In this document: positions 1 to 7,984 of the stretch, piece after piece | How positions within the stretch are numbered: position 1 is the first letter of the stretch | Layout of the letters: each line of letters opens with the position of its first letter | DNA from: a virus | Lineage: Duplodnaviria > Heunggongvirae > Uroviricota > Caudoviricetes | Strand: one strand, 5' to 3' | IMG/VR virus record: IMGVR_UViG_2850808358_000006 | Span: 1-7,984 of that record | Length of the DNA: 7,984 bases | The notes under the pieces: model-generated | Databases searched by the model: none | The model's input: the letters and a program-made list of their open reading frames with translations, nothing else | What the model was told of the DNA's origin: nothing | Translations under genes and position numbers: made by a program

Positions 1-57
1 GGTGCTGTCCTGTAAAGCAATGCGCCTGCGTTCCTCAAACTATGGCGCTGATAGTGG

Positions 58-363
58 CTATTCCTGCTCTTTGACCTTGCGTCGCTGGAGTTCTTCACGC
101 GCGACGGTGACGAGTTGCCCGATCTCCTCGGCGGCTTTGACTCCGATTTTTTCCACCTGCGCTAGGGCATCGAGCGAAGAAACCAGGAGGTTTTCTCCGC
201 TTCCTTCTGCCTGGCGGCGGGCGATTTCACCGCGCATGGCGGTTACTATGAATCCGGCGTTGCTTTCACCGTCCAGTTTTACGGATTCCATGCCTTCAAT
301 AACATCATGCGGGATCCGAGCTGTCAGTGATTGTGATTTTGCGTTTTTTGAACCTGTAGCCAT
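58..363 (-). CDS. ribbon-helix-helix (CopG/Arc-like) DNA-binding protein; candidate repressor divergent from the replication operon
   Basis: Minus-strand ORF (track 58..378, TTG start). I prefer the internal ATG at plus 363-361 because a GAGAGG Shine-Dalgarno lies 6-8 nt upstream (plus 369-377). The N-terminus SLTARIPHDVIEGMESVKLDGESNAGFIVTAMRGEIARR fits a beta-strand/helix/helix RHH pattern by eye. No database search run. Confidence 0.55.
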   Translation of the reverse strand: MATGSKNAKSQSLTARIPHDVIEGMESVKLDGESNAGFIVTAMRGEIARRQAEGSGENLLVSSLDALAQVEKIGVKAAEEIGQLVTVAREELQRRKVKEQE

Positions 364-379
364 CTGTAATCCTCTCAAT

Positions 380-465
380 GAAAGTGTAAGACAATATACA
401 CATAAAAAGTCTTACATAAAAGCATTGACATGTAAGCCACCTATAAATAAAGTTACTTACACCTT
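380..465. promoter_or_regulatory. divergent promoter/operator region: TTGACA (425-430), 17-bp spacer, TAAAGT (448-453), with two inverted-repeat operator candidates
   Basis: Inverted repeat 1: TGTAAGAC (385-392) and GTCTTACA (409-416), 16-bp spacer. Inverted repeat 2: TGTAAG (431-436) and CTTACA (456-461), bracketing the spacer and -10 of the rightward promoter. Lies between the divergent RHH gene and the plus-strand operon. Confidence 0.5.
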
Positions 466-559
466 GTTAATGCAAGGTGCAGAAACGACGAAACCCCGCA
501 CTGTAGGAGCAGTAACGGGGCTTCTAACCACCAACGATAGCAAGATTATCGAGGCAGCT

Positions 560-763
560 ATGAGAAATCATACCATACACCCGCAAGGGCGGGACTCGTA
601 CAACCTGAATAAATACATCTGGCGTTTTATCGCCCTGAGCACCGCACAACCGCGCGTGATTCACATCGTGGCCACCAGCGAACAGGAAGCACGCCAGCAA
701 TCCCCGGCTGGCTGCGTGATGGTATTCGCCGCCCGTATTCGTCAGGGGGTGTGCCATGCCTGA
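560..763 (+). CDS. hypothetical small protein (67 aa), first gene of the rightward operon
   Basis: ATG at 560 preceded by GAGG (551-554). Its stop TGA 761-763 overlaps the next start ATG 756 (ATGCCTGA), suggesting translational coupling. This is the C-terminal part of track ORF 2..763. No recognisable motif. Confidence 0.4.
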   Translation: MRNHTIHPQGRDSYNLNKYIWRFIALSTAQPRVIHIVATSEQEARQQSPAGCVMVFAARIRQGVCHA

Positions 764-1076
764 TATGTCAAATTACCAGTACCTGATTAATCCGCATTTT
801 AACTGTGAGCATGATATTGCTAAAAAGATTTATTCCGCTGCGGATGGGGCTACTGACAATATATCAATGGCTGTTGCGTCAATTGGTAGCCTGATGTGGC
901 ATGCGTCAGAAAATGAGGACTATGACGAAAAGGCCATGCGCATTGATATGGGTAATATCGGTTTGTTACTGGCAATGCTTGGACATTTTGATATTTCGTT
1001 ACGGTGCACCATTGAAAATGCCACAGATGCATTAAATGCTATAAAGAAAGCGAATACTGATTCAAATCGGGGATAA
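756..1076 (+). CDS. hypothetical protein (106 aa), AT-rich accessory-like gene
   Basis: Track ORF 756..1076. GGGGG run (745-749) 6 nt upstream of the ATG; overlaps the upstream stop. Visibly lower GC than flanking genes (by eye, not computed). No recognisable motif. Confidence 0.55.
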   Translation: MPDMSNYQYLINPHFNCEHDIAKKIYSAADGATDNISMAVASIGSLMWHASENEDYDEKAMRIDMGNIGLLLAMLGHFDISLRCTIENATDALNAIKKANTDSNRG

Positions 1077-1082
1077 ATAATC

Positions 1083-1382
1083 ATGAGAACGTATTTATCT
1101 GGCTTGACTGCCAGCGGTTATGCACACCCCCAAATTATCCCCGGCGCTATTTATCTGGATAAGAACGGTAACAGAGTAACGGTAAAAGAACTGATGTTTG
1201 ACCGTGTGTATTTTATCCGTGATGGCTATTCATTTCTTAGTTCGCTGAACGTGGAGATCTTTATTAGCAGATTCAGGCGGGAAATCCCGCTTTCCAGAAA
1301 TAACCATGTGTCATGTATGGATGTTGATAAAAAACTACAGGAACTAAAAAACATGATTGCCGCGTGGAGAGAGCAGAAATGA
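1083..1382 (+). CDS. hypothetical protein (99 aa), AT-rich accessory-like gene
   Basis: Track ORF 1083..1382. Stop TGA 1380-1382 overlaps the primase ATG 1379-1381 (ATGA), suggesting coupling. Lower GC by eye. No recognisable motif. Confidence 0.55.
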   Translation: MRTYLSGLTASGYAHPQIIPGAIYLDKNGNRVTVKELMFDRVYFIRDGYSFLSSLNVEIFISRFRREIPLSRNNHVSCMDVDKKLQELKNMIAAWREQK

Positions 1383-2500
1383 AAAAAGCGCCAAATTTAA
1401 AACACCAGCCGCGTGACAAAATGACGGAAGTCATCATTTTTGCGGGTAGTGATGCGTGGGCACATGCGAAACAGTGGCAGGAACAGGACGGGCGACTGGC
1501 TGGCGATAACGTGCCACCTGTCTGGCTTGGAGAGCAACAACTTGCCGAACTGGACAACCTGCAAATCGTACCGGACGGACGCTATCGCGTGCGTCTCTAT
1601 CAGGCGGGGTTATTGCGTCCGGGGCTTGTTAATACCATCGGGCAGAAACTGGCAGTGGCAGGTGTCAGGGATGCTGATTATTACCCTGAAGGAATGCACA
1701 GCCAGAAACGGGAGAACTGGCGCGAATATCTGGAACGTGAACGGGCAGAGCAGGCGGAAAAGAAAAAGGTAGTTGAACTGCCTGTAAAGAAAAAAGAGCC
1801 ATGCTATCAGGATGATGAATTAAAGCCCCGCGTTGAAAGTCGCGTCGATGGTGTTTTCTGGGTAACGCCCAAAGTGGATAAGCAGTCAGGCGAAATTATC
1901 CGGCCTGAGACGTGGTTATGTTCTCCGCTTGAACTACTGGGAACGGGGACGATCGGTAAAGAGCATTACCGCGTGATGCGCTGGAAAAAATTAGCAAACC
2001 ATGAAGTCATCACAATGGCGATCCCGTGTGGTGGCATTGGCGACCGTGACGGCTGGCGGTTGCTTAAAGATCACGGGCTGAACGTGACAACAAACGGCAA
2101 ATACAGGGCTATCCTGGCTGACTGGATGCAGTTAAGCGGAAGCCATGAGGAATGGCAGCTAAGCACAACAACGGGCTGGCATTTTGGCGCGTATATCATG
2201 CCGGACGGCTCAATCATTGGTGATTCTGAAAAACCGATCCTGTTTACCGGAAAAAGTGCCGCTGTTAATGGCTATTCGGTTGCGGGTACGGCGGAGGGCT
2301 GGCGCGACTGCGTGGCGCGGCTGGCTGGTGGCAATCCGTCCATGATGCTGGGTGTTGCCACGTCACTGGCAGCACCTTTGATTGGCCTTGTTGGTGCTGA
2401 CGGCTTCGGGTACATCTTTTCGAACAGTCATCGGCAGGGAAAACCACCACGCAGAACATCGCATCAAGTTTATGGGGAGAGCCGGACGCACAACGGCTGA
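1379..2500 (+). CDS. primase-helicase, N-terminal fragment (Toprim-like primase region); reading frame breaks near 2411-2416
   Basis: Track ORF 1364..2500 (GTG). I prefer ATG 1379, preceded by GGAGAGAG (1366-1373). Toprim-like segment TEVIIFAGSDAW ... RDADYY by eye. The frame-2 tail after about 2413 (IFSNSHRQGKPPRRTSHQVYGESRTHNG) looks like out-of-frame translation because the conserved helicase motifs continue in frame 1. Confidence 0.6.
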   Translation: MKKAPNLKHQPRDKMTEVIIFAGSDAWAHAKQWQEQDGRLAGDNVPPVWLGEQQLAELDNLQIVPDGRYRVRLYQAGLLRPGLVNTIGQKLAVAGVRDADYYPEGMHSQKRENWREYLERERAEQAEKKKVVELPVKKKEPCYQDDELKPRVESRVDGVFWVTPKVDKQSGEIIRPETWLCSPLELLGTGTIGKEHYRVMRWKKLANHEVITMAIPCGGIGDRDGWRLLKDHGLNVTTNGKYRAILADWMQLSGSHEEWQLSTTTGWHFGAYIMPDGSIIGDSEKPILFTGKSAAVNGYSVAGTAEGWRDCVARLAGGNPSMMLGVATSLAAPLIGLVGADGFGYIFSNSHRQGKPPRRTSHQVYGESRTHNG

Positions 2501-2601
2501 CCTGGTACGGCACAGCGTTAGGTATCGCTAACGAGGCAGAGGCGCACAACGACGGGCTGTTACCCCTGGATGAAATAGGCCAGGCCGGAAACGCGCGGGA
2601 G

Positions 2602-3501
2602 GTGTCCACGTCAGCCTATACGTTGTTTAACGGTTCCGGGAAATTACAGGGGGCGAAGGACGGCGGCAACCGGGAGATAAAACACTGGCGCACGGTGGCA
2701 ATCAGCACCGGAGAAATGGACGTTGAGACATTCCTCAAAACGGAGGGGATAAAAGTCAAAGCGGGGCAGCTTGTCCGCCTGCTTAACGTTCCGATGGAAA
2801 AAGCCACGCACTTTCACGAATACAGCACCGGAAAGGCGCACGCAGACGCGTTAAAGGATGCCTGGACAGAAAATCACGGGGCAGCGGGTCGTGAGTGGGT
2901 TAAATGGCTGGCAGGCCACCAGCAGGAGGCAAAGGATACGGTAAGGGAATGCCGCGAACGGTGGCGCAACCTGATACCGGAGAGCTACGGCGAGCAGGTC
3001 CACCGCGTGGGTGAGCGTTTCGCCATACTGGAGGCCGCGCTTGTGCTTTCCTGTCATGTAACTGGCTGGGCCGCGCAGGAATGCCGGGACGCAATACAGC
3101 ATAACTTTAATGCCTGGGTGAAGGAGTTCGGCACGGGTAACAGGGAATTTAAACAGATGGTTGAACAGGCTGAGGCGTTTTTGTCGTCGTTCGGGTTCAG
3201 TCGATACCTTCCTTACCCAAACAGTGATGAACGTGATTTACCGATTAAAGACCTTGCCGGATACAGAAAGGGGAGTATCAGAAATGAAGATGATGAGTTC
3301 CGTTTTTACACGTTTCCTCATGTGTTTGAGGGGGAGATCGCACAGGGATTTAACCCGTCCCACTTTGCCCGCGCGTTGAGTGCTGCCGGAATGCTGGAAG
3401 CGGGTAACGATCGCCGTTACAAGAAAAAGGCTCTCGGCAAAATTGGGGGGAAGCAGCATGTTTTTTACGTGCTGATGTTCCAGCCTGAGGCAGAAGATTA
3501 A
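2602..3501 (+). CDS. primase-helicase, C-terminal fragment (SF3/D5-like or DUF927-like helicase); homology extends upstream to about 2413 in the same frame
   Basis: Track ORF 2602..3501 (GTG). My manual frame-1 translation from 2413 gives HLFEQSSAGKTTTQNIASSLWGEPDAQRLTWYGTALGIANEAEAHNDGLLPLDEIGQAGNAREV, with Walker A (GKTT) at 2437-2448 and a Walker B-like LLPLDE at 2557-2574, then running into the track ORF. This means the two fragments are one gene split by a frameshift. Confidence 0.6.
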   Translation: MSTSAYTLFNGSGKLQGAKDGGNREIKHWRTVAISTGEMDVETFLKTEGIKVKAGQLVRLLNVPMEKATHFHEYSTGKAHADALKDAWTENHGAAGREWVKWLAGHQQEAKDTVRECRERWRNLIPESYGEQVHRVGERFAILEAALVLSCHVTGWAAQECRDAIQHNFNAWVKEFGTGNREFKQMVEQAEAFLSSFGFSRYLPYPNSDERDLPIKDLAGYRKGSIRNEDDEFRFYTFPHVFEGEIAQGFNPSHFARALSAAGMLEAGNDRRYKKKALGKIGGKQHVFYVLMFQPEAED

Positions 3502-3523
3502 CCCCCTGTGTGAGGTGAAAAGT

Positions 3524-3840
3524 TGCGGGTTATGCGGGTTACTCTGTGTATAAGTGCATTAACTGCATGAATAAAAAGGAAATCAATAACCCGCACGTAA
3601 CCCGCAAAACGGCAGTTATAACCCGCAAAAGTGCGATTATAACCCGCAGATGAATAACAGGAAGTGACAGCAAACAGCCACGCGTAACCCGCAGAAAAAA
3701 AACCGTTTGCGGGTTATTTTGAGCATTTTGCGGGTTACGCCACGGCTAAACAGTAAACAGTTAATTTTGTAATGTATTGATATTAAGGAATAAAAAATAC
3801 TTAGCAAGCGAAGATAACCCGCTAACCCGCATAACCCGCA
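3524..3840. repeat. iteron array (9-mer TAACCCGCA / TGCGGGTTA, about 12 copies) around an AT-rich core; putative origin of replication
   Basis: Reverse copies at 3524-3532, 3533-3541, 3708-3716, 3729-3737. Forward copies at 3587-3595, 3598-3606, 3619-3627, 3640-3648, 3685-3693, and three tandem copies across 3814-3840. AT-rich stretch about 3740-3812. Sits immediately 3' of the helicase gene, as in SaPI/PICI-type origins. Confidence 0.7.
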
Positions 3841-3879
3841 CTGTTTTGTATATATATACGAAAAATTGAGATCTGAACT

Positions 3880-4122
3880 ATGAAGGCAAACCGCAAACAA
3901 CCACACTACCGCGCTATTGACCTTACAGAGCACTGGCTGAGAGTGGCGATAAAAATCATCGACCGAAACACGGGGGAAGGATATGCAAAAGCACATCCCG
4001 AACTGATAAGCGCATTCATGACAACGGCAGCTGCAAACTTTGCCACGTTGACAGAACGGGAGATTGCCGAAGCGGAACAGGTAACAACCATCAACGTTAA
4101 AACCGGAGAGCAGACAGCATGA
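3880..4122 (+). CDS. hypothetical protein (80 aa)
   Basis: Track ORF 3880..4122. Stop TGA 4120-4122 overlaps the SSB ATG 4119 (ATGA). Weak Shine-Dalgarno. A TATATATA box (about 3849-3858) immediately follows the last iterons. Confidence 0.5.
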   Translation: MKANRKQPHYRAIDLTEHWLRVAIKIIDRNTGEGYAKAHPELISAFMTTAAANFATLTEREIAEAEQVTTINVKTGEQTA

Positions 4123-4541
4123 CAGCACAGATAGCGGCTTACGGGCGGCTGGTGGCTGACCCGCAGTTAAAGACCACCAGCAAGGGTACACAAATGACGA
4201 TGGCTAGTATGGCGGTACCCCTTCCGTGCAGCCAGGCAGATGACGGAACGGCGACGATGTGGTTATCCGTCCTGGCGTTTGGCAGACAGGCCGACGCACT
4301 GGCAAAACACCACAAAGGCGAACTGGTGAGCGTGGCGGGTAACATGCAGGTAAGCCAGTGGACAGGCCAGAACGGCGAAACGCGGCAGGGCTGGCAGGTT
4401 ATCGCAGACAGCGTAATCAGTGCGAGAACGGCGCGACCGGGCGGAAAAAAAGGCCAGCAGGGGCAGGCTACTGACGCACTGAACAGGGCAAAACAACAGG
4501 CGGGTAACGATGATCCGTACGGGGATAACATACCGTTTTAA
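4119..4541 (+). CDS. ssb: single-stranded DNA-binding protein (SSB family, short form, 140 aa)
   Basis: OB-fold pattern similar to E. coli SSB by eye: MWLSVLAFGRQADALAKHHKGELVSVAGNMQVSQWTGQNGETRQGWQV compared with [43 protein letters not shown]. Gly/Gln-rich linker and C-terminal tip DDPYGDNIPF, matching the conserved SSB protein-interaction tail that ends in IPF. Confidence 0.8.
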   Translation: MTAQIAAYGRLVADPQLKTTSKGTQMTMASMAVPLPCSQADDGTATMWLSVLAFGRQADALAKHHKGELVSVAGNMQVSQWTGQNGETRQGWQVIADSVISARTARPGGKKGQQGQATDALNRAKQQAGNDDPYGDNIPF

Positions 4542-4556
4542 ACAACGAGTAACAGA

Positions 4557-4579
4557 AGCCGGAGAAGTCCGGCTTTTTT
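4557..4579 (+). terminator. rho-independent terminator after ssb
   Basis: Stem AGCCGGA (4557-4563) and TCCGGCT (4568-4574), loop GAAG, followed by a T-run through 4579. Confidence 0.75.
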
Positions 4580-4585
4580 ATGCCC

Positions 4586-4626
4586 AAAAAAAGCCCGATA
4601 AGGTCAGAGGGTCTTATCGGGCTTTT
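4586..4626. terminator. second hairpin, bidirectional-terminator-like (A-run, 11-bp stem, T-run)
   Basis: A7 (4586-4592); stem AGCCCGATAAG (4592-4602) and CTTATCGGGCT (4613-4623); 10-nt loop; TTTT (4623-4626). Confidence 0.55.
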
Positions 4627-4707
4627 GCATATGAGGCTTTTATCTAACAGTATGGTAACTACTGTTGTCGGAGATAATTTCATAATTTGCAACACAACTC
4701 AACATTA

Positions 4708-4764
4708 TTGCGTAAAATGAAATCATGATTATAATCACAACTGGATGAACATCCAGTTGTGATT
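4708..4764 (+). promoter_or_regulatory. candidate promoter of the capsid operon (TTGCGT -35, perfect TATAAT -10 at 4730-4735) overlapped by a perfect 15-bp palindrome
   Basis: AATCACAACTGGATG (4733-4747), 2-bp centre, CATCCAGTTGTGATT (4750-4764), then TTTT. The palindrome begins inside the -10 hexamer, so it is either an operator for a dimeric regulator or an RNA hairpin. Confidence 0.45.
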
Positions 4765-4791
4765 TTTAACGTCAAAGAGGAATTTCCGACT

Positions 4792-4998
4792 ATGGCAGAA
4801 GAGAAAAAAGGCGGGGTGACAGTTTACATAAGCCCAGACATCGTGGAGGCGCTCAGGGAACGCCACCAGCAGAACGTAAAAGCAGGCATTGCGGCAGGAC
4901 TTGATCCGCTGGCGATGGTTGAGCCGTCAACAGGCTGGCAGGTACGCGCCTATTTACGCGCGGCGCTGGGCATGAATCAGACGCATGGAGGTGAATAA
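4792..4998 (+). CDS. hypothetical small protein (68 aa) preceding the major capsid gene
   Basis: Track ORF 4759..4998 (GTG). I prefer ATG 4792 with AAGAGG (4775-4780) upstream. Stop TAA 4996-4998 overlaps the capsid ATG 4998 (TAATG). Function unknown; a scaffold or regulatory role is speculation. Confidence 0.45.
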   Translation: MAEEKKGGVTVYISPDIVEALRERHQQNVKAGIAAGLDPLAMVEPSTGWQVRAYLRAALGMNQTHGGE

Positions 4999-6053
4999 TG
5001 GCAGGCAAAGCAACGGCACTTAACACTAACCAGCTTTTCGCGTACCTGAATCGCGGGGATATTGCGGAATTTAAATTCAGTCCGCTGTTTACCACGCTGT
5101 TTTTCCCGAACGTGGCGACATTCAACACCCAAAACATCATGCTGGACACCCTGGACATTGAAGAGGTTACGATGTCGGCGTTTTGTTCGCCTATGGTGGG
5201 TAGTCAGGTCCAGCGCGATAAAGGGTACGAAACCAGCACGATTAAACCTGGATACATGAAGCCGAAGCACGAAATCGATCCAACGAAAACCATCATGCGT
5301 ATGGCTGGAGAAGATCCGGCACAGCTTAATGACCCAACCTATCGCCGTATGCGCCTGATTACTGGCAACATGCGCCGCCAGATAAACGCCATTAAGGCAC
5401 GCGTGGAATGGCTGGCGGTGAATGCGATAACGACCGGAAAAAACATCATTGAGGGCGAAGGCATAGAACGCTATGAAATAGACTGGAAGATCCCAAGTAA
5501 AAATATCGCCAGACAGGGACCGGGTAAAAAGTGGTCAGAGGCAGATAAGGAAACACACGATCCAATCTATGACATCGAGCTTTATGCTGATCAGGCTGGT
5601 TGCCCCGCAAACGTCATGATTATGGGCGCTGAGGTATGGCGCACGTTACGCAGCTTTAAAAAATTCCGTGAGCTGTACGATCTTTCCCGTGGTTCAGAAT
5701 CCTCCGCCGAACTGGCCTGTAAAAACCTGGGCGAAGTGGTGAGCTTTAAAGGCTATCTGGGCGATATTGCCCTTATCGTCTATTCCGGCAAATACGCCGA
5801 CAGCGACGGCACAGAAAAATATTTCCTTGAACCTGATTTGCTGGTCCTGGGCAACACCAACAATAAAGGGCTGGTGGCCTATGGTGCGATTATGGATCAG
5901 GACGCAGTAAGAACGGGGGCAACGCAAAACATGTACTACCCGAAAAACTGGATTGAGGACGGCGATCCGGCGATTGAGTACGTGCAGACGCACAGCGCAC
6001 CGCAGCCGGTTCCGGCAGATATTCGCAAATTTGTTACTGTCAAAATTGCTTAA
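4998..6053 (+). CDS. major capsid protein, phage lambda gpE family (351 aa)
   Basis: Colinear with lambda gpE by eye along the whole length. Examples (window vs lambda): FKFSPLFTTLFFPN vs FKFDPLFLRLFFRE; KPGYMKPKHEIDPT vs TPGYVKPKHEVNPQ; DPTYRRMRLITGNMRR vs DPAYRRRRIIMQNMRD; FKGYLGDIALIVYSGKY vs YKGMYGDVAIVVYSGQY; VLGNTNNKGLVAYGAIMDQDA vs VLGNTQARGLRTYGCIQDADA; YYPKNWIEDGDPAIEY vs RYPKNWVTTGDPAREF. GGAGGTGA Shine-Dalgarno at 4987-4994. Confidence 0.9.
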   Translation: MAGKATALNTNQLFAYLNRGDIAEFKFSPLFTTLFFPNVATFNTQNIMLDTLDIEEVTMSAFCSPMVGSQVQRDKGYETSTIKPGYMKPKHEIDPTKTIMRMAGEDPAQLNDPTYRRMRLITGNMRRQINAIKARVEWLAVNAITTGKNIIEGEGIERYEIDWKIPSKNIARQGPGKKWSEADKETHDPIYDIELYADQAGCPANVMIMGAEVWRTLRSFKKFRELYDLSRGSESSAELACKNLGEVVSFKGYLGDIALIVYSGKYADSDGTEKYFLEPDLLVLGNTNNKGLVAYGAIMDQDAVRTGATQNMYYPKNWIEDGDPAIEYVQTHSAPQPVPADIRKFVTVKIA

Positions 6054-6064
6054 CGGGGGATTCT

Positions 6065-6400
6065 ATGGACACTCCATACATTGAGTTATTTGCAGGCAGC
6101 CAGCAGGTATCCACGACGCTGGTACATTTTGCCGCTGATGCTGGCGTTATTCAGGAATTTACCCCGCTGATGCTGGCGGACAATGGCGAGTTTAAGGCGT
6201 GGGATGGTCAGGAATCTGGCAAGGCTGTTTATCTGACCTCGTACCCCGTGGACACGTCGACGCAGAAATCAGCACAGTGTTACAAGACGGGGATATTTAA
6301 TATCGCCGCCGTTAACTGGCCTGAGAGCGTCGACACCGACGCGAAAAAATGCGCCGCCTTTGCGGGTTCTGGTGTATCTGTTCAGCCGCTGGCGCGATAA
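6065..6400 (+). CDS. head decoration protein, phage lambda gpD family (111 aa)
   Basis: By-eye alignment with lambda gpD: TPLMLADNGEFKAWDG vs TPLMLDTSSRKLVAWDG; YKTGIFNIAAVNWPESVDTDAKKCAAFAGSGVSV vs [40 protein letters not shown] Shine-Dalgarno at 6055-6060. Confidence 0.85.
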   Translation: MDTPYIELFAGSQQVSTTLVHFAADAGVIQEFTPLMLADNGEFKAWDGQESGKAVYLTSYPVDTSTQKSAQCYKTGIFNIAAVNWPESVDTDAKKCAAFAGSGVSVQPLAR

Positions 6401-6413
6401 GCAGGGGGGAACG

Positions 6414-6827
6414 ATGGCAACGAATGAAAGTATCATGGCGCTACCGCTGGCGAGTAAATTTAAAGCTGAAGCGCGGGCAATGGCTGACAGATGTCTATCA
6501 ACCTACGAAGCTATATATCAACTTAACAAACTGGAAGAACAGGACAAGCCGCGCGCTGATGCGATTATGTCGCTTCATGAATCTGACGACTATCAGCCGC
6601 TGTTACGTGCAATGGCAAACGTGCCTTGTATTGATGTTGATACGGCTAAAAACATCCTGAACATGACCATAGAGCAGGAACGCCAGAAGGTTGCACCAGA
6701 GCTTACCGCAGCCTTTGAAAACTTTATGGACATGCACAGCCCACAAGCCGTATCAGCTGGCATGGCATACGATGGCAGAAACCCGGGCGATGACGGCGAC
6801 ATTGATCGCATACTGAAAACCATCTGA
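6414..6827 (+). CDS. hypothetical protein (137 aa), last gene of the capsid operon
   Basis: Track ORF 6360..6827 trimmed to ATG 6414, which follows a GGGGGGA run (6404-6410). Followed by a terminator. No recognisable motif; not obviously lambda FI or FII. Confidence 0.6.
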   Translation: MATNESIMALPLASKFKAEARAMADRCLSTYEAIYQLNKLEEQDKPRADAIMSLHESDDYQPLLRAMANVPCIDVDTAKNILNMTIEQERQKVAPELTAAFENFMDMHSPQAVSAGMAYDGRNPGDDGDIDRILKTI

Positions 6828-6833
6828 GACAAG

Positions 6834-6855
6834 GCCGGAGAAATCCGGCTTTTTT
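6834..6855 (+). terminator. rho-independent terminator after the capsid operon
   Basis: Stem GCCGGA (6834-6839) and TCCGGC (6844-6849), loop GAAA, T-run 6850-6855. Nearly identical in sequence to the terminator at 4557-4579. Confidence 0.75.
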
Positions 6856-6976
6856 GCGGGTCCTTTCCGGCATATGGACCTGTTACGGGGCGGCGACCTC
6901 GCGGTTTTTCGCTATTTATGACGTTTTTCCGTGAAGGTGACACCACCACCACTTGATTAACATTTAACCAGTTAAT
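6856..6976 (+). other. lambda-type cos site (cosQ-like 6858-6870, cosN cohesive-end core GGGCGGCGACCT 6888-6899, short cosB-like region)
   Basis: GGGTCCTTTCCGG ... GTTACGGGGCGGCGACCTCGCGGTTTTTCGCTATTTATGA matches the joined lambda right end and left end (GGGTCCTTTCCGGTGATCCGACAGGTTACG + GGGCGGCGACCTCGCGGGTTTTCGCTATTTATGAAAATTTTCCGG), recalled from memory. Downstream CGTTTTTCCGTG (6922-6933) resembles the lambda R3 element CGTTTCCGTTCT. Followed by CACCACCACC and the palindrome TTAACCAGTTAA (6964-6975), then the Nu1-like gene. Confidence 0.8.
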
Positions 6977-6988
6977 TGAGGTAACATT

Positions 6989-7423
6989 ATGATTGATAAG
7001 ACTTGTTTTGTAAGTCAGCAGGAAATAGCTGAACATTTCAAGGTAAACAGAACCACTATTCGCGCATGGACCAAACAGGGGATGCCGTATCTTAATGCGG
7101 ATCGCGGAAAGTCCGGCGGTTATCACATCGGGCATACATTGCTTTGGTCTTCAGGTAAAAGCCATCTTGAGGCCATTGGATATCACGTAGAAACCAGTGC
7201 GCTGGAAAAAATTATGGTTGCCAGGCTGCTTTCATCTGAGCGTGACGAGTACTCCAGTGAAGAAACAGAACATCGATTTGATGAAGGTTTGCAGATTTAC
7301 GGCTATTCACCGGAAGATGTGAGCAAAGCACGAAATAAAATGGCTGGCTTTCTGGCTGGGTGGCGTCATGCAGTAAGCGTTCGCCGTGCCAGCATGGAGC
7401 AATCAGCCGATACCGAACAGTAA
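6989..7423 (+). CDS. Nu1-like small terminase subunit homologue (winged-HTH DNA-binding domain), 144 aa; possibly a packaging-redirection (Rpp-like) factor
   Basis: N-terminus QQEIAEHFKVNRTTIRAWTKQGMPYL matches lambda Nu1 KKQLADIFGASIRTIQNWQEQGMPVL by eye. About 35 aa shorter than Nu1. No large-terminase gene follows. TGAGGT Shine-Dalgarno at 6977-6982. Lies directly downstream of the cos site. Confidence 0.75.
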   Translation: MIDKTCFVSQQEIAEHFKVNRTTIRAWTKQGMPYLNADRGKSGGYHIGHTLLWSSGKSHLEAIGYHVETSALEKIMVARLLSSERDEYSSEETEHRFDEGLQIYGYSPEDVSKARNKMAGFLAGWRHAVSVRRASMEQSADTEQ

Positions 7424-7479
7424 AGCCGATAACTTGTTAATCACTCGCAGCAATGCGTGTGATTTGTGCACACTTTCGG

Positions 7480-7670
7480 TTAACTGGTTCGATGTCCGGT
7501 TTTAGTGTCTGTTTTTTGCGCATGTCCGGTTCATGGAAAGCATGTTTTTGTATTTTTCATATAGTTAACTTGAAGAGAAGCCGGACATGGCTCCTGGAAA
7601 ATTTTCATAAATAGCGAAAACCCGCGAGGTCGCCGCCCCGTAACGGGCCATAATTCCAGGAAGGACCCGA
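7480..7670 (-). other. second cos-like site in inverted orientation (cosN core on the minus strand at 7627-7638, cosQ-like at 7656-7668, cosB-like region with three ATGTCCGG-type repeats)
   Basis: The reverse complement of 7594-7640 reads CGGGGCGGCGACCTCGCGGGTTTTCGCTATTTATGAAAATTTTCCAG, near-identical to the lambda cosN left flank. Repeats ATGTCCGG at 7492-7499 and 7522-7529 and the inverted CCGGACAT at 7581-7588 occupy positions like lambda R1/R2/R3, with an AT-rich stretch between them. TTAACTGGTT (7480-7489) mirrors the palindrome in the first cos site. Confidence 0.65.
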
Positions 7671-7702
7671 CGACACCAGACTATCAGAACGATGGGGGCA
7701 CA

Positions 7703-7984
7703 ATGACAGAAGCCGAAATACTGGGATTAATCCGTCGCGTTACCGGAATCAGCCAGCAGGCTGACGAACAGACCACGCAGCCGGACAGCGTGACAGCCGA
7801 AAACTATGCGCGTGTTGTGGCTGAGGTGATGCGCCGTGATGGTATTGAGCTTAACGGCGAGGATATGCGCAACATACGAACCAGAGTTCTCGGGTTGTTG
7901 TCATACCGTCGCCGTTCTCAACAACGGAGGGAGAGCGCGAAAAATACTTACCAGTGGAAGAAGCCGGAACGGCTGCGGCGGTAA
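7703..7984 (+). CDS. hypothetical protein (93 aa)
   Basis: Track ORF 7703..7984. GGGGG run at 7694-7698 upstream of the ATG; stop TAA at the window end. Basic C-terminus (RRRSQQRRESAKNTYQWKKPERLRR). No recognisable motif. Confidence 0.5.
   Translation: MTEAEILGLIRRVTGISQQADEQTTQPDSVTAENYARVVAEVMRRDGIELNGEDMRNIRTRVLGLLSYRRRSQQRRESAKNTYQWKKPERLRR

Follow-up and report, generated by a model that had tools for sequence, protein, structure and literature searches.

The 7,984-nucleotide stretch of DNA analysed here (positions 1–7,984 of IMG/VR virus record IMGVR_UViG_2850808358_000006, hereafter the window) almost certainly belongs to a satellite rather than a phage, namely a member of the EcCICFT073 family of classical cos-type Gram-negative phage-inducible chromosomal islands (PICIs). 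The window begins after alpA and ends inside the last island gene, with int and the attachment (att) ends lying beyond it. Positions 4792–6827 are the late (capsid) cassette of this island, comprising four co-directional genes located between the replication origin and single-strand DNA-binding protein (SSB) block on one side and the cos1-rppA-cos2 packaging block on the other:

4792..4998, plus strand: orf68 (c1498-like), 68 amino acids (aa), 93% identical to c1498 and matching PHROG 3255 (unknown function).
4998..6053, plus strand: gpE-type major capsid (coat) protein of the satellite clade (c1499-like), 351 aa, matching Pfam Phage_cap_E (E 2e-50).
6065..6400, plus strand: head decoration protein of the gpD/phage 21 SHP type (c1500-like), 111 aa, matching Pfam HDPD (E 9e-18).
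6414..6827, plus strand: c1501-like 137-aa protein, probably homologous to the scaffold domain (Nu3) with which lambdoid gpC ends.

The four genes form a tight operon, in which the stop codon of orf68 overlaps the start of the coat gene E (TAATG at 4996–5000) and gaps of only 11 and 13 nt separate E from the decoration gene D and D from the 137-aa gene. The coat protein belongs to the gpE family, scoring 172 bits against Pfam PF03864 (cut-off 22.9) over profile positions 14–328 of 329, and aligns with lambda gpE at 43% identity over 328 aa (E 4e-92) and with the lambda capsid structure (PDB 7VI9) at E 3e-82. It is also ~96% identical to PDB 3BQW, a crystal structure titled 'putative capsid protein of prophage'. 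The alignment with gpE runs end to end, with indels confined to two single residues and the N-terminal arm, which is 8–10 residues longer than that of gpE. The decoration protein falls within the gpD/SHP family (64.9 bits against Pfam PF02924, cut-off 29.1); its nearest solved structure is that of phage 21 (1TD0, E 3e-14), followed by lambda gpD (1C5E, E 3e-10), to which it is 38% identical over 76 aa. The gpE- and gpD-like proteins described in an earlier note on this DNA are therefore real, and the note was also right that they are encoded in E-then-D order, the reverse of lambda (C/Nu3, D, E), and that no portal, head protease or large terminase is found among the window open reading frames (ORFs), as scanned against Pfam and PHROGs. 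The orf68 family is confined to Enterobacterales and lies immediately 5' of satellite E in E. coli, in Edwardsiella and in a diverged PICI (locus L014); an AlphaFold2 (AF2) model of orf68 with a mean confidence (pLDDT) of 78 has a beta-hairpin and two helices, and a fold search with this model gave no significant match. Within the decoration gene, an exact 15-nt direct repeat (CCGCTGATGCTGGCG) is present at 6132–6146 and 6164–6178, 32 nt apart, and may be due to chance.

The earlier note had further held that no scaffold gene accompanies the two shell genes, a statement contradicted by the gene at 6414–6827, which lies inside the interval the note itself described. Profile and pairwise alignments indicate that the 137-aa product is very probably a homologue of the Nu3-type scaffold domain. 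In lambda, the C-terminal region of gpC is separately translated as Nu3 and acts as the internal scaffold. Against PHROG 53 (head maturation protease), the 137-aa protein matched only profile positions 482–567 of 583 (E 2e-8), and by BLAST it aligned to residues 416–493 of gpC (501 aa) in each of the two CFT073 lambdoid prophages (E 1e-8). An hhalign comparison of the satellite family (15 sequences) with the C-termini of gpC from seven phage sequences returned a probability of 97% (E 3e-11). The alignment is collinear over the whole length of the 137-aa protein, with an overall identity to CFT073 prophage gpC of 33%. Two 'IMxL..(A/P)..V(D/E)xAxxIL' repeats in the protein are followed by FExFMxxHSPxAV and by an acidic tail with the ending DxxxxLxT. 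Repeats of the 'IMxLxEAxGRE..PGMTVExAxxIL' type number two in the 137-aa protein, three in CFT073 prophage gpC and one in lambda Nu3. The C-terminal motif reads FENFMDMHSPQAV in the 137-aa protein and FEHFMANHSPAAV in the prophage gpC, and the acidic tails end in IDRILKTI (137-aa protein), VKMLMAMP (prophage gpC) and VNDLLNTPV (lambda).

An exhaustive search of 1.8 billion representatives recovered only two distant relatives of the 137-aa protein, one being a gene of the same type in a diverged PICI cassette (P0040) and the other the C-terminal part of a gpC directly 5' of D and E, in phage order (P0041, E 2.6e-5). A word-indexed search retrieved near-identical E. coli proteins only, tblastn against deposited phage records gave nothing at E ≤ 0.01, and there was no match in Pfam or NCBIfam. 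The single-sequence AF2 model is all-helical with a pLDDT of 45, too poor for a fold search, and a search of solved structures with the protein found no homologue. Some NCBI records (family P0001–P0035) name it 'phage head-tail connector protein', a name that found no support in Pfam, NCBIfam, PHROGs or hhalign and is probably a misannotation, since lambdoid gpC, at its Nu3 end, gave the sole significant match. Given this homology, the cassette would encode a short scaffold-like protein in addition to coat and decoration, and scaffold function (coat binding, prohead entry and removal) is predicted for it.

EcCICFT073 was located in the CFT073 chromosome at L004:36931-47655, with the gene order seen in the window. 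The window proteins are 93% (orf68, c1498), 95% (coat, c1499), 96% (decoration, c1500), 92% (137-aa protein, c1501) and 97% (144-aa protein, c1503 or RppA) identical to their CFT073 counterparts, and the 93-aa protein is 77% identical to the product of the last island gene. The supplement of Fillol-Salom et al. 2018 (PMC6092414) gives sizes of 68 aa for c1498, 351 aa for c1499, 137 aa for c1501 and 60 aa for c1502. The replication and packaging blocks on either side of the cassette contain the following features:

1364..3501, plus strand: pri-rep, DUF927 primase/helicase (Pfam DUF927, E 2e-20).
3523..3840, no strand assigned: replication origin with direct and inverted TAACCCGC iterons, located by repeat search.
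4119..4541, plus strand: SSB (Pfam SSB, E 4e-16).
6857..6930, plus strand: cos1, with the exact lambda cosN 12-mer GGGCGGCGACCT at 6888–6899, located by exact-match search.
6989..7423, plus strand: rppA (c1503-like), 144 aa, 97% identical to the CFT073 protein and matching PDB 6HLK (RppC) at E 8e-32.
7596..7669, minus strand: cos2, which repeats cos1 in inverted orientation and contains an exact cosN (7627–7638), located by exact match and repeat search.
7703..7984, plus strand: conserved 93-aa PICI protein, PHROG 1561 (unknown function), 77% identical to its CFT073 homologue.

Three features expected of a PICI of this type are represented in the window. The island has its own pri-rep gene, though frameshifted in the window copy, with an iteron origin 3' of it, a location that agrees with the PICI origin described in PMC6092414. 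One nucleotide is missing from a GGGG run near 2348 (window 2340–2480), which splits the pri-rep frame in two. In tblastn comparisons, the intact proteins of two related loci (L002 and L001) place the frame change between 2410 and 2479, with a single-base gap against L002, whose gene is otherwise 99–100% identical to that of the window. The break falls just upstream of the Walker-A region. It may be genuine, in which case the gene is a pseudogene and the island defective in replication, or it may stem from a sequencing error in the homopolymer. Helper-type cos sites are present as two exact copies of lambda cosN, within a 74-nt inverted repeat (84% complementary) that brackets rppA, in agreement with the two cos sites reported for EcCICFT073 by Fillol-Salom et al. 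The literature consulted gave no explanation for the retention of an inverted second cos by a cos-packaged element. An Rpp protein is encoded at 6989–7423, as indicated by its 97% identity to c1503 and the RppC structure match; its N-terminal helix-turn-helix (HTH) resembles Nu1, and c1503, named RppA in PMC6739421, redirects the helper small terminase subunit (TerS) to the PICI cos site. The satellite context recognised in the earlier note (DUF927 primase-helicase, iterons, SSB, and an exact cosN followed by a short HTH gene) is thus present in full, and no Rfam family matches anywhere in the window.

The lambda-like nature of E, D, cosN and the Nu1-resembling HTH would also be expected of a rearranged or defective lambdoid prophage with its remaining head and tail genes outside the window, an explanation to which we attach almost no credence. 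Five complete relatives are ~11-kb islands that carry int and alpA, then an Icd-like gene, DUF4222, a replication gene, SSB, the cassette, an Rpp or TerS-like gene and the 93-aa gene, and they are flanked by chromosomal genes (cspD/clpS, tqsA, roxA/phoQ, tRNA-Pro/yejM or narP-side host genes). They terminate a few hundred bases 3' of the 93-aa gene and agree with the layout of a PICI of this type, which has int and alpA on the left, a size of ~10–15 kb, a specific att site and neither lysis nor tail genes. No portal, protease or large terminase is annotated in the five relatives, and beyond the cassette no head or tail genes are annotated in them. As the complete relatives are bounded by ordinary chromosomal genes, a rearranged prophage was rejected; moreover, the replication module is of the PICI type (DUF927/primase, DUF4222, iterons) and the Nu1-resembling gene is RppA. 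Examination of such flanks, proposed in the earlier note as a check, revealed no lambdoid head or tail module and so favours a satellite.

Two other satellite identities were rejected, in line with the view already taken in the note. A capsid-forming PICI (cf-PICI) has its own portal, protease, connectors, TerS and large terminase subunit (TerL), and no Pfam or PHROG match to any of these was found in the window, nor is any annotated in the relatives. A P4-like satellite has Sid, Psu, a Delta/Ogr-type activator and an alpha primase, whereas the cassette belongs to the lambda E, D and Nu3 families with no match to Sid or Psu, and the replication gene is of the PICI-type DUF927 family. The window is one more member of a very common and already described family, and the idea that it reflects an unusual, unrecognised strategy did not survive: c1499 (capsid) and c1500 (decoration) of EcCICFT073 were described, and each deleted, by Fillol-Salom et al. 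in 2018 (PMC6092414), and the induction of EcCICFT073 and its high-frequency transfer by helper phage were experimentally shown in the same work. Among 29 reference Gram-negative PICIs, 21 have a capsid gene, the commonest late gene, which is not required for transfer and was proposed to act as a backup copy (Tommasini, Mageeney and Williams, bioRxiv 10.1101/2022.07.18.500453).

A cassette query (4759–7423) matched 1201 of 5426 complete E. coli genomes (22%), with query coverage of at least 80% in 592 of the 1201. The cassette is found in islands with different integrases, different att sites and three replication genes, which carry a gene for an Rpp of 144 aa or for a TerS-like protein of 180 aa. 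A profile scan of contigs with the single E protein confirmed no relative, the patterns being too specific, and a satellite-only alignment yielded four loci. Satellite E proteins of E. coli, Kluyvera and Edwardsiella share 53–95% identity but only 40–47% with the E proteins of lambda, the CFT073 prophage and the Edwardsiella helper, which are 59–94% identical among themselves. D proteins follow the same pattern, with 52–96% identity within satellites and 32–42% between satellites and helpers or phages. No E protein more than 46% identical to satellite E was found in 50,697 deposited phage records. By these identities, satellite E and D form an old clade of their own rather than the product of a recent capture or rearrangement. 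The orf68-E-D order is kept from E. coli to Edwardsiella. In Edwardsiella tarda (L012, 1–11893), the satellite lies in the helper portal gene and its orf70-E-D adjoins the helper C-D-E, and in Cedecea (L010, 2903–14203) and Kosakonia (L011, 2596–14459) a satellite with E-D lies inside the lambda-type E gene of the helper. These three are helper-embedded satellites (HES) of the type described by Tommasini et al., with satellite-clade E-D in the same order, and the interrupted helper gene stays split until the satellite excises. Since the two satellite proteins stand apart as a clade and their genes retain their order even adjoining helper C-D-E, the E-then-D order is a conserved hallmark of a long-lived satellite lineage.

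Pairwise dN/dS ratios of nonsynonymous to synonymous change, which rest on six sequences and the simple Nei-Gojobori estimate, were 0.10–0.15 for E (0.17–0.25 against a lineage of 54% identity), 0.05–0.15 for D, 0.16–0.3 for the Nu3-like gene and 0.2–0.3 for orf68, with 0.06–0.27 for SSB as a comparison. On these values, satellite E and D are under purifying selection. The cassette could be non-functional baggage, either late genes that a helper supplied in recent times or the decaying remains of an ancestral phage, as some satellites do capture helper late genes (Tommasini et al., bioRxiv 10.1101/2022.07.18.500453) and the published knock-outs have no phenotype. We consider this very improbable, because the ORFs are intact in every locus examined, the dN/dS values (0.05–0.3) are comparable to those of SSB, the satellite clade is well separated from phage E and D with its order reversed even beside a helper, and the cassette is so widespread in E. 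coli.

A tentative but plausible reading of these observations is that the cassette is a working shell-building set of the satellite lineage, the benefit of which is conditional. Under this model, a lambdoid helper would induce the island, as established for EcCICFT073 and assumed for the window from the 97% identity, and the island would replicate from its own origin. RppA would bind the helper small terminase subunit and redirect the helper terminase to the island cos, and island concatemers would be packaged into phage-sized heads. The satellite coat, decoration and short scaffold may then co-assemble with, or replace, helper E, D and Nu3 on the helper portal, together with the helper protease. 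Such an activity would be of benefit if the satellite interrupts the helper E or portal gene, if late proteins of the helper are in short supply, or if the helper is a poor match; the basis for a backup role is the position of relatives inside the helper E gene (L010, L011) or portal gene (L012).

Several results weigh against a shell-building role. Deletion of c1499 or c1500 left the transfer of EcCICFT073 by CFT073 prophages unchanged and did not relieve interference with lambda, and DNA packaged with lambda was of phage size (all PMC6092414). When post-ori genes were expressed singly from pBAD18, only c1503 inhibited lambda, and the others inhibited neither lambda nor phi80 (PMC6739421). 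Nor is the four-gene set universal: E-D is retained in a sister lineage (L002, Kluyvera and others), but there an HTH gene of the AlpA family replaces the Nu3-like gene. In L002 this gene, the second of its family, follows D at 18165–18548 (Pfam Phage_AlpA, E 1e-8), in L008–L011 it occupies the same slot, and L002 has no orf68 5' of E. In the diverged PICI L014 (1–3671, Logan ERR3372453), E, D and Rpp are 84–86% identical to those of the window, whereas the Nu3-like protein is only 42% and orf68 62% identical, far more diverged than E and D. Finally, the evidence of selection carries the small sample and simple estimate given above.

The published constructs nevertheless leave room for a function of the full set, without being evidence for one. 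The marked islands used were c1501::tetA and c1499::cat (PMC6092414), and, as the supplement sizes identify c1501 with the 137-aa Nu3-like gene, each marker strain disrupts one cassette gene. For the deletions of c1499 and c1500 the parent island was c1501::tetA, and transfer by lambda and phi80 was measured with c1499::cat (PMC6092414). The test of packaged-DNA size presumably used one of these two islands, the paper not saying which. As far as the published texts tell, all tests were thus made with islands in which at least one cassette gene is disrupted, never with an intact cassette. In any case, transfer by at least three helpers does not depend on the cassette genes.

These data bear directly on the strong form of the earlier note, in which the island would build its own small or chimeric capsids on the helper portal with the helper protease, would require them for transfer and would stand half-way to a cf-PICI. 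Here the note was right as to the satellite and its coat and decoration genes, and wrong as to a novel strategy. Support for a required capsid comes from the presence of the coat, decoration and scaffold trio under purifying selection, and from the longer coat arm and the two rather than three scaffold repeats, differences that may alter assembly. Precedents include SaPIbov5, whose coat homologue Ccm redirects the shape of the capsid (PMC8569155), and PmCI172, which has a capsid homologue and makes small heads (PMC6092414), and all published EcCICFT073 tests used the c1501::tetA or c1499::cat islands. Nonetheless, the c1499::cat island, which lacks the coat gene, transfers at 1e5–1e6 per ml (PMC6092414), and as transfer was unchanged in the deletions and DNA packaged with lambda was of phage size only, an obligatory self-made small capsid is unsupported for the tested helpers and we judge it improbable. 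Deletion of the gpE-like gene, which the note had suggested as a check, had already been published, with transfer and interference unchanged (PMC6092414).

A further explanation, to which we give an equally low probability, is that the satellite E, D and Nu3-like proteins are decoys that poison or titrate prohead assembly of the helper or of competing lambdoid phages. The Nu3-like protein could, for example, compete with helper gpC/Nu3 for its site on the coat, as CpmB of SaPI1 does with the 80alpha scaffold. The close mimicry of the prophage gpC C-terminal motif by that of the 137-aa protein, at 33% overall identity, would fit such competition, and capsid assembly is a common route of PICI interference. 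In addition, the Nu3-like gene and orf68 evolve much faster than the shell genes and may track helper type: their divergence in L014 coincides with a different cos sequence lacking the lambda-type cosN, which is the pattern expected of a helper-facing interaction. However, deletion of c1499 or c1500 did not restore lambda plaquing, the singly expressed genes other than c1503 were without effect on lambda and phi80, and no PADLOC defence model matched the cassette proteins, although a clean c1501 deletion and gene combinations are absent from the published tests.

Taken as a whole, the best explanation is a PICI late (capsid) cassette that includes a Nu3-like homologue and may have a conditional shell-building role; on the whole, we regard this explanation as probable. 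We consider it possible, but unlikely, that the intact cassette goes further and is a satellite-specific shell-assembly system that nucleates on the helper portal, giving satellite-made or mixed shells of possibly altered size or stability. Such a system would have gone unseen because the markers inactivate one component and the remaining genes were tested singly, and it would be an intermediate, so far missing, between classical PICIs, which appropriate entire capsids, and cf-PICIs, which appropriate nothing but tails. In our literature search we found no published mention of the Nu3-scaffold homology, of the old satellite E/D clade with its conserved orf68-E-D order, of the purifying selection on it, or of the fact that both marker strains disrupt a cassette gene. 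The only published tests of the cassette gave no phenotype, and the retention of a coat gene by these satellites is an acknowledged puzzle. With a scaffold homologue, an old selected lineage and constructs that each lack one gene, the 'dispensable gene' becomes a testable hypothesis, and the interest that remains lies in the function, the scaffold homology and this experimental gap. Should cassette proteins indeed enter particles, this would bear on satellite host range, on particle stability and on PICIs as delivery vehicles; otherwise, the strong conservation of the cassette is itself unusual and puzzling.

The borders of the cassette show further features:

4558..4579, plus strand: hairpin and T-run (GCCGGAGAAGTCCGGCTTTTTT) at the end of the replication block, identified by repeat search and reading of the sequence.
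4670..4791, plus strand: putative conserved leader/promoter region, from an alignment of five PICIs.
6834..6855, plus strand: hairpin and T-run at the end of the capsid cassette, identified in the same way as the first.

The two hairpins are 95% identical, with one mismatch in 22 nt, and share the form GCCGGAGAA[G/A]TCCGGCTTTTTT; as twin terminators, they stand on both sides of the cassette as if it were a bounded, exchangeable module. About 125 nt 5' of orf68 are kept in the five PICIs, and the sequence further upstream diverges. The leader contains TATAAT at ~4729–4734, a 15-bp perfect palindrome at 4733–4764, then T5 and a ribosome-binding site (AAGAGGAA). Its predicted RNA fold has an energy of -26 kcal/mol (z -5.6), and changes in the palindrome arms in other islands are partly compensatory or G-U compatible. 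Two readings of the palindrome are possible, an operator that overlaps the promoter and a terminator within the leader. A helper Q-dependent late promoter was also considered and is not claimed, as no phage sequence resembling the region was found and overlap of the hairpin with the putative -10 makes the assignment ambiguous.

Among known systems, the window is closest to EcCICFT073, with which it shares the order SSB, c1498, c1499, c1500, c1501, cos1, rppA, cos2 and 93-aa gene, proteins of 92–97% identity (77% for the 93-aa protein), the same lambda cosN and the same iteron-type origin. It differs in its replication gene, which is of the frameshifted DUF927 type rather than the 'DNA primase family' gene of CFT073, and in having no PerC gene between SSB and the cassette. 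The HES (for example 11capE; Tommasini et al., bioRxiv 10.1101/2022.07.18.500453) have the same four-zone layout with Phage_cap_E and HDPD in the late zone, but the nearest complete relatives of the window occupy chromosomal sites rather than prophage late genes, and the HES and L002-type relatives examined have no Nu3-like gene. Relative to lambda, the coat (43%), the decoration protein (38%) and the scaffold C-terminal domain are homologous. The order is E, D, Nu3-like in the window and Nu3, D, E in lambda, and the scaffold homologue is a free-standing 137-aa gene, whereas lambda Nu3 is the in-frame C-terminal product of the protease gene. The window also has no protease domain, portal or terminase, and its coat has a longer N-terminal arm. 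SaPIbov5, with Ccm, is likewise a cos-packaged satellite encoding a homologue of the HK97-fold coat protein of its helper, and CpmB of SaPI1 offers an analogy for the Nu3-like protein, being a short helical protein whose C-terminus resembles that of the helper scaffold. Neither Ccm nor CpmB is related in sequence to the cassette proteins, and both cause redirection of capsid size or shape together with interference, phenotypes not found for the EcCICFT073 genes. Finally, cf-PICIs such as EcCIEDL933 share the int-alpA-rep backbone and a satellite-encoded capsid protein, but they encode an HK97-type coat, protease, portal, connectors, HNH, TerS and TerL and form their own small capsids, whereas the island in the window has only a coat, a decoration protein and a scaffold fragment, and would use the helper terminase via RppA.

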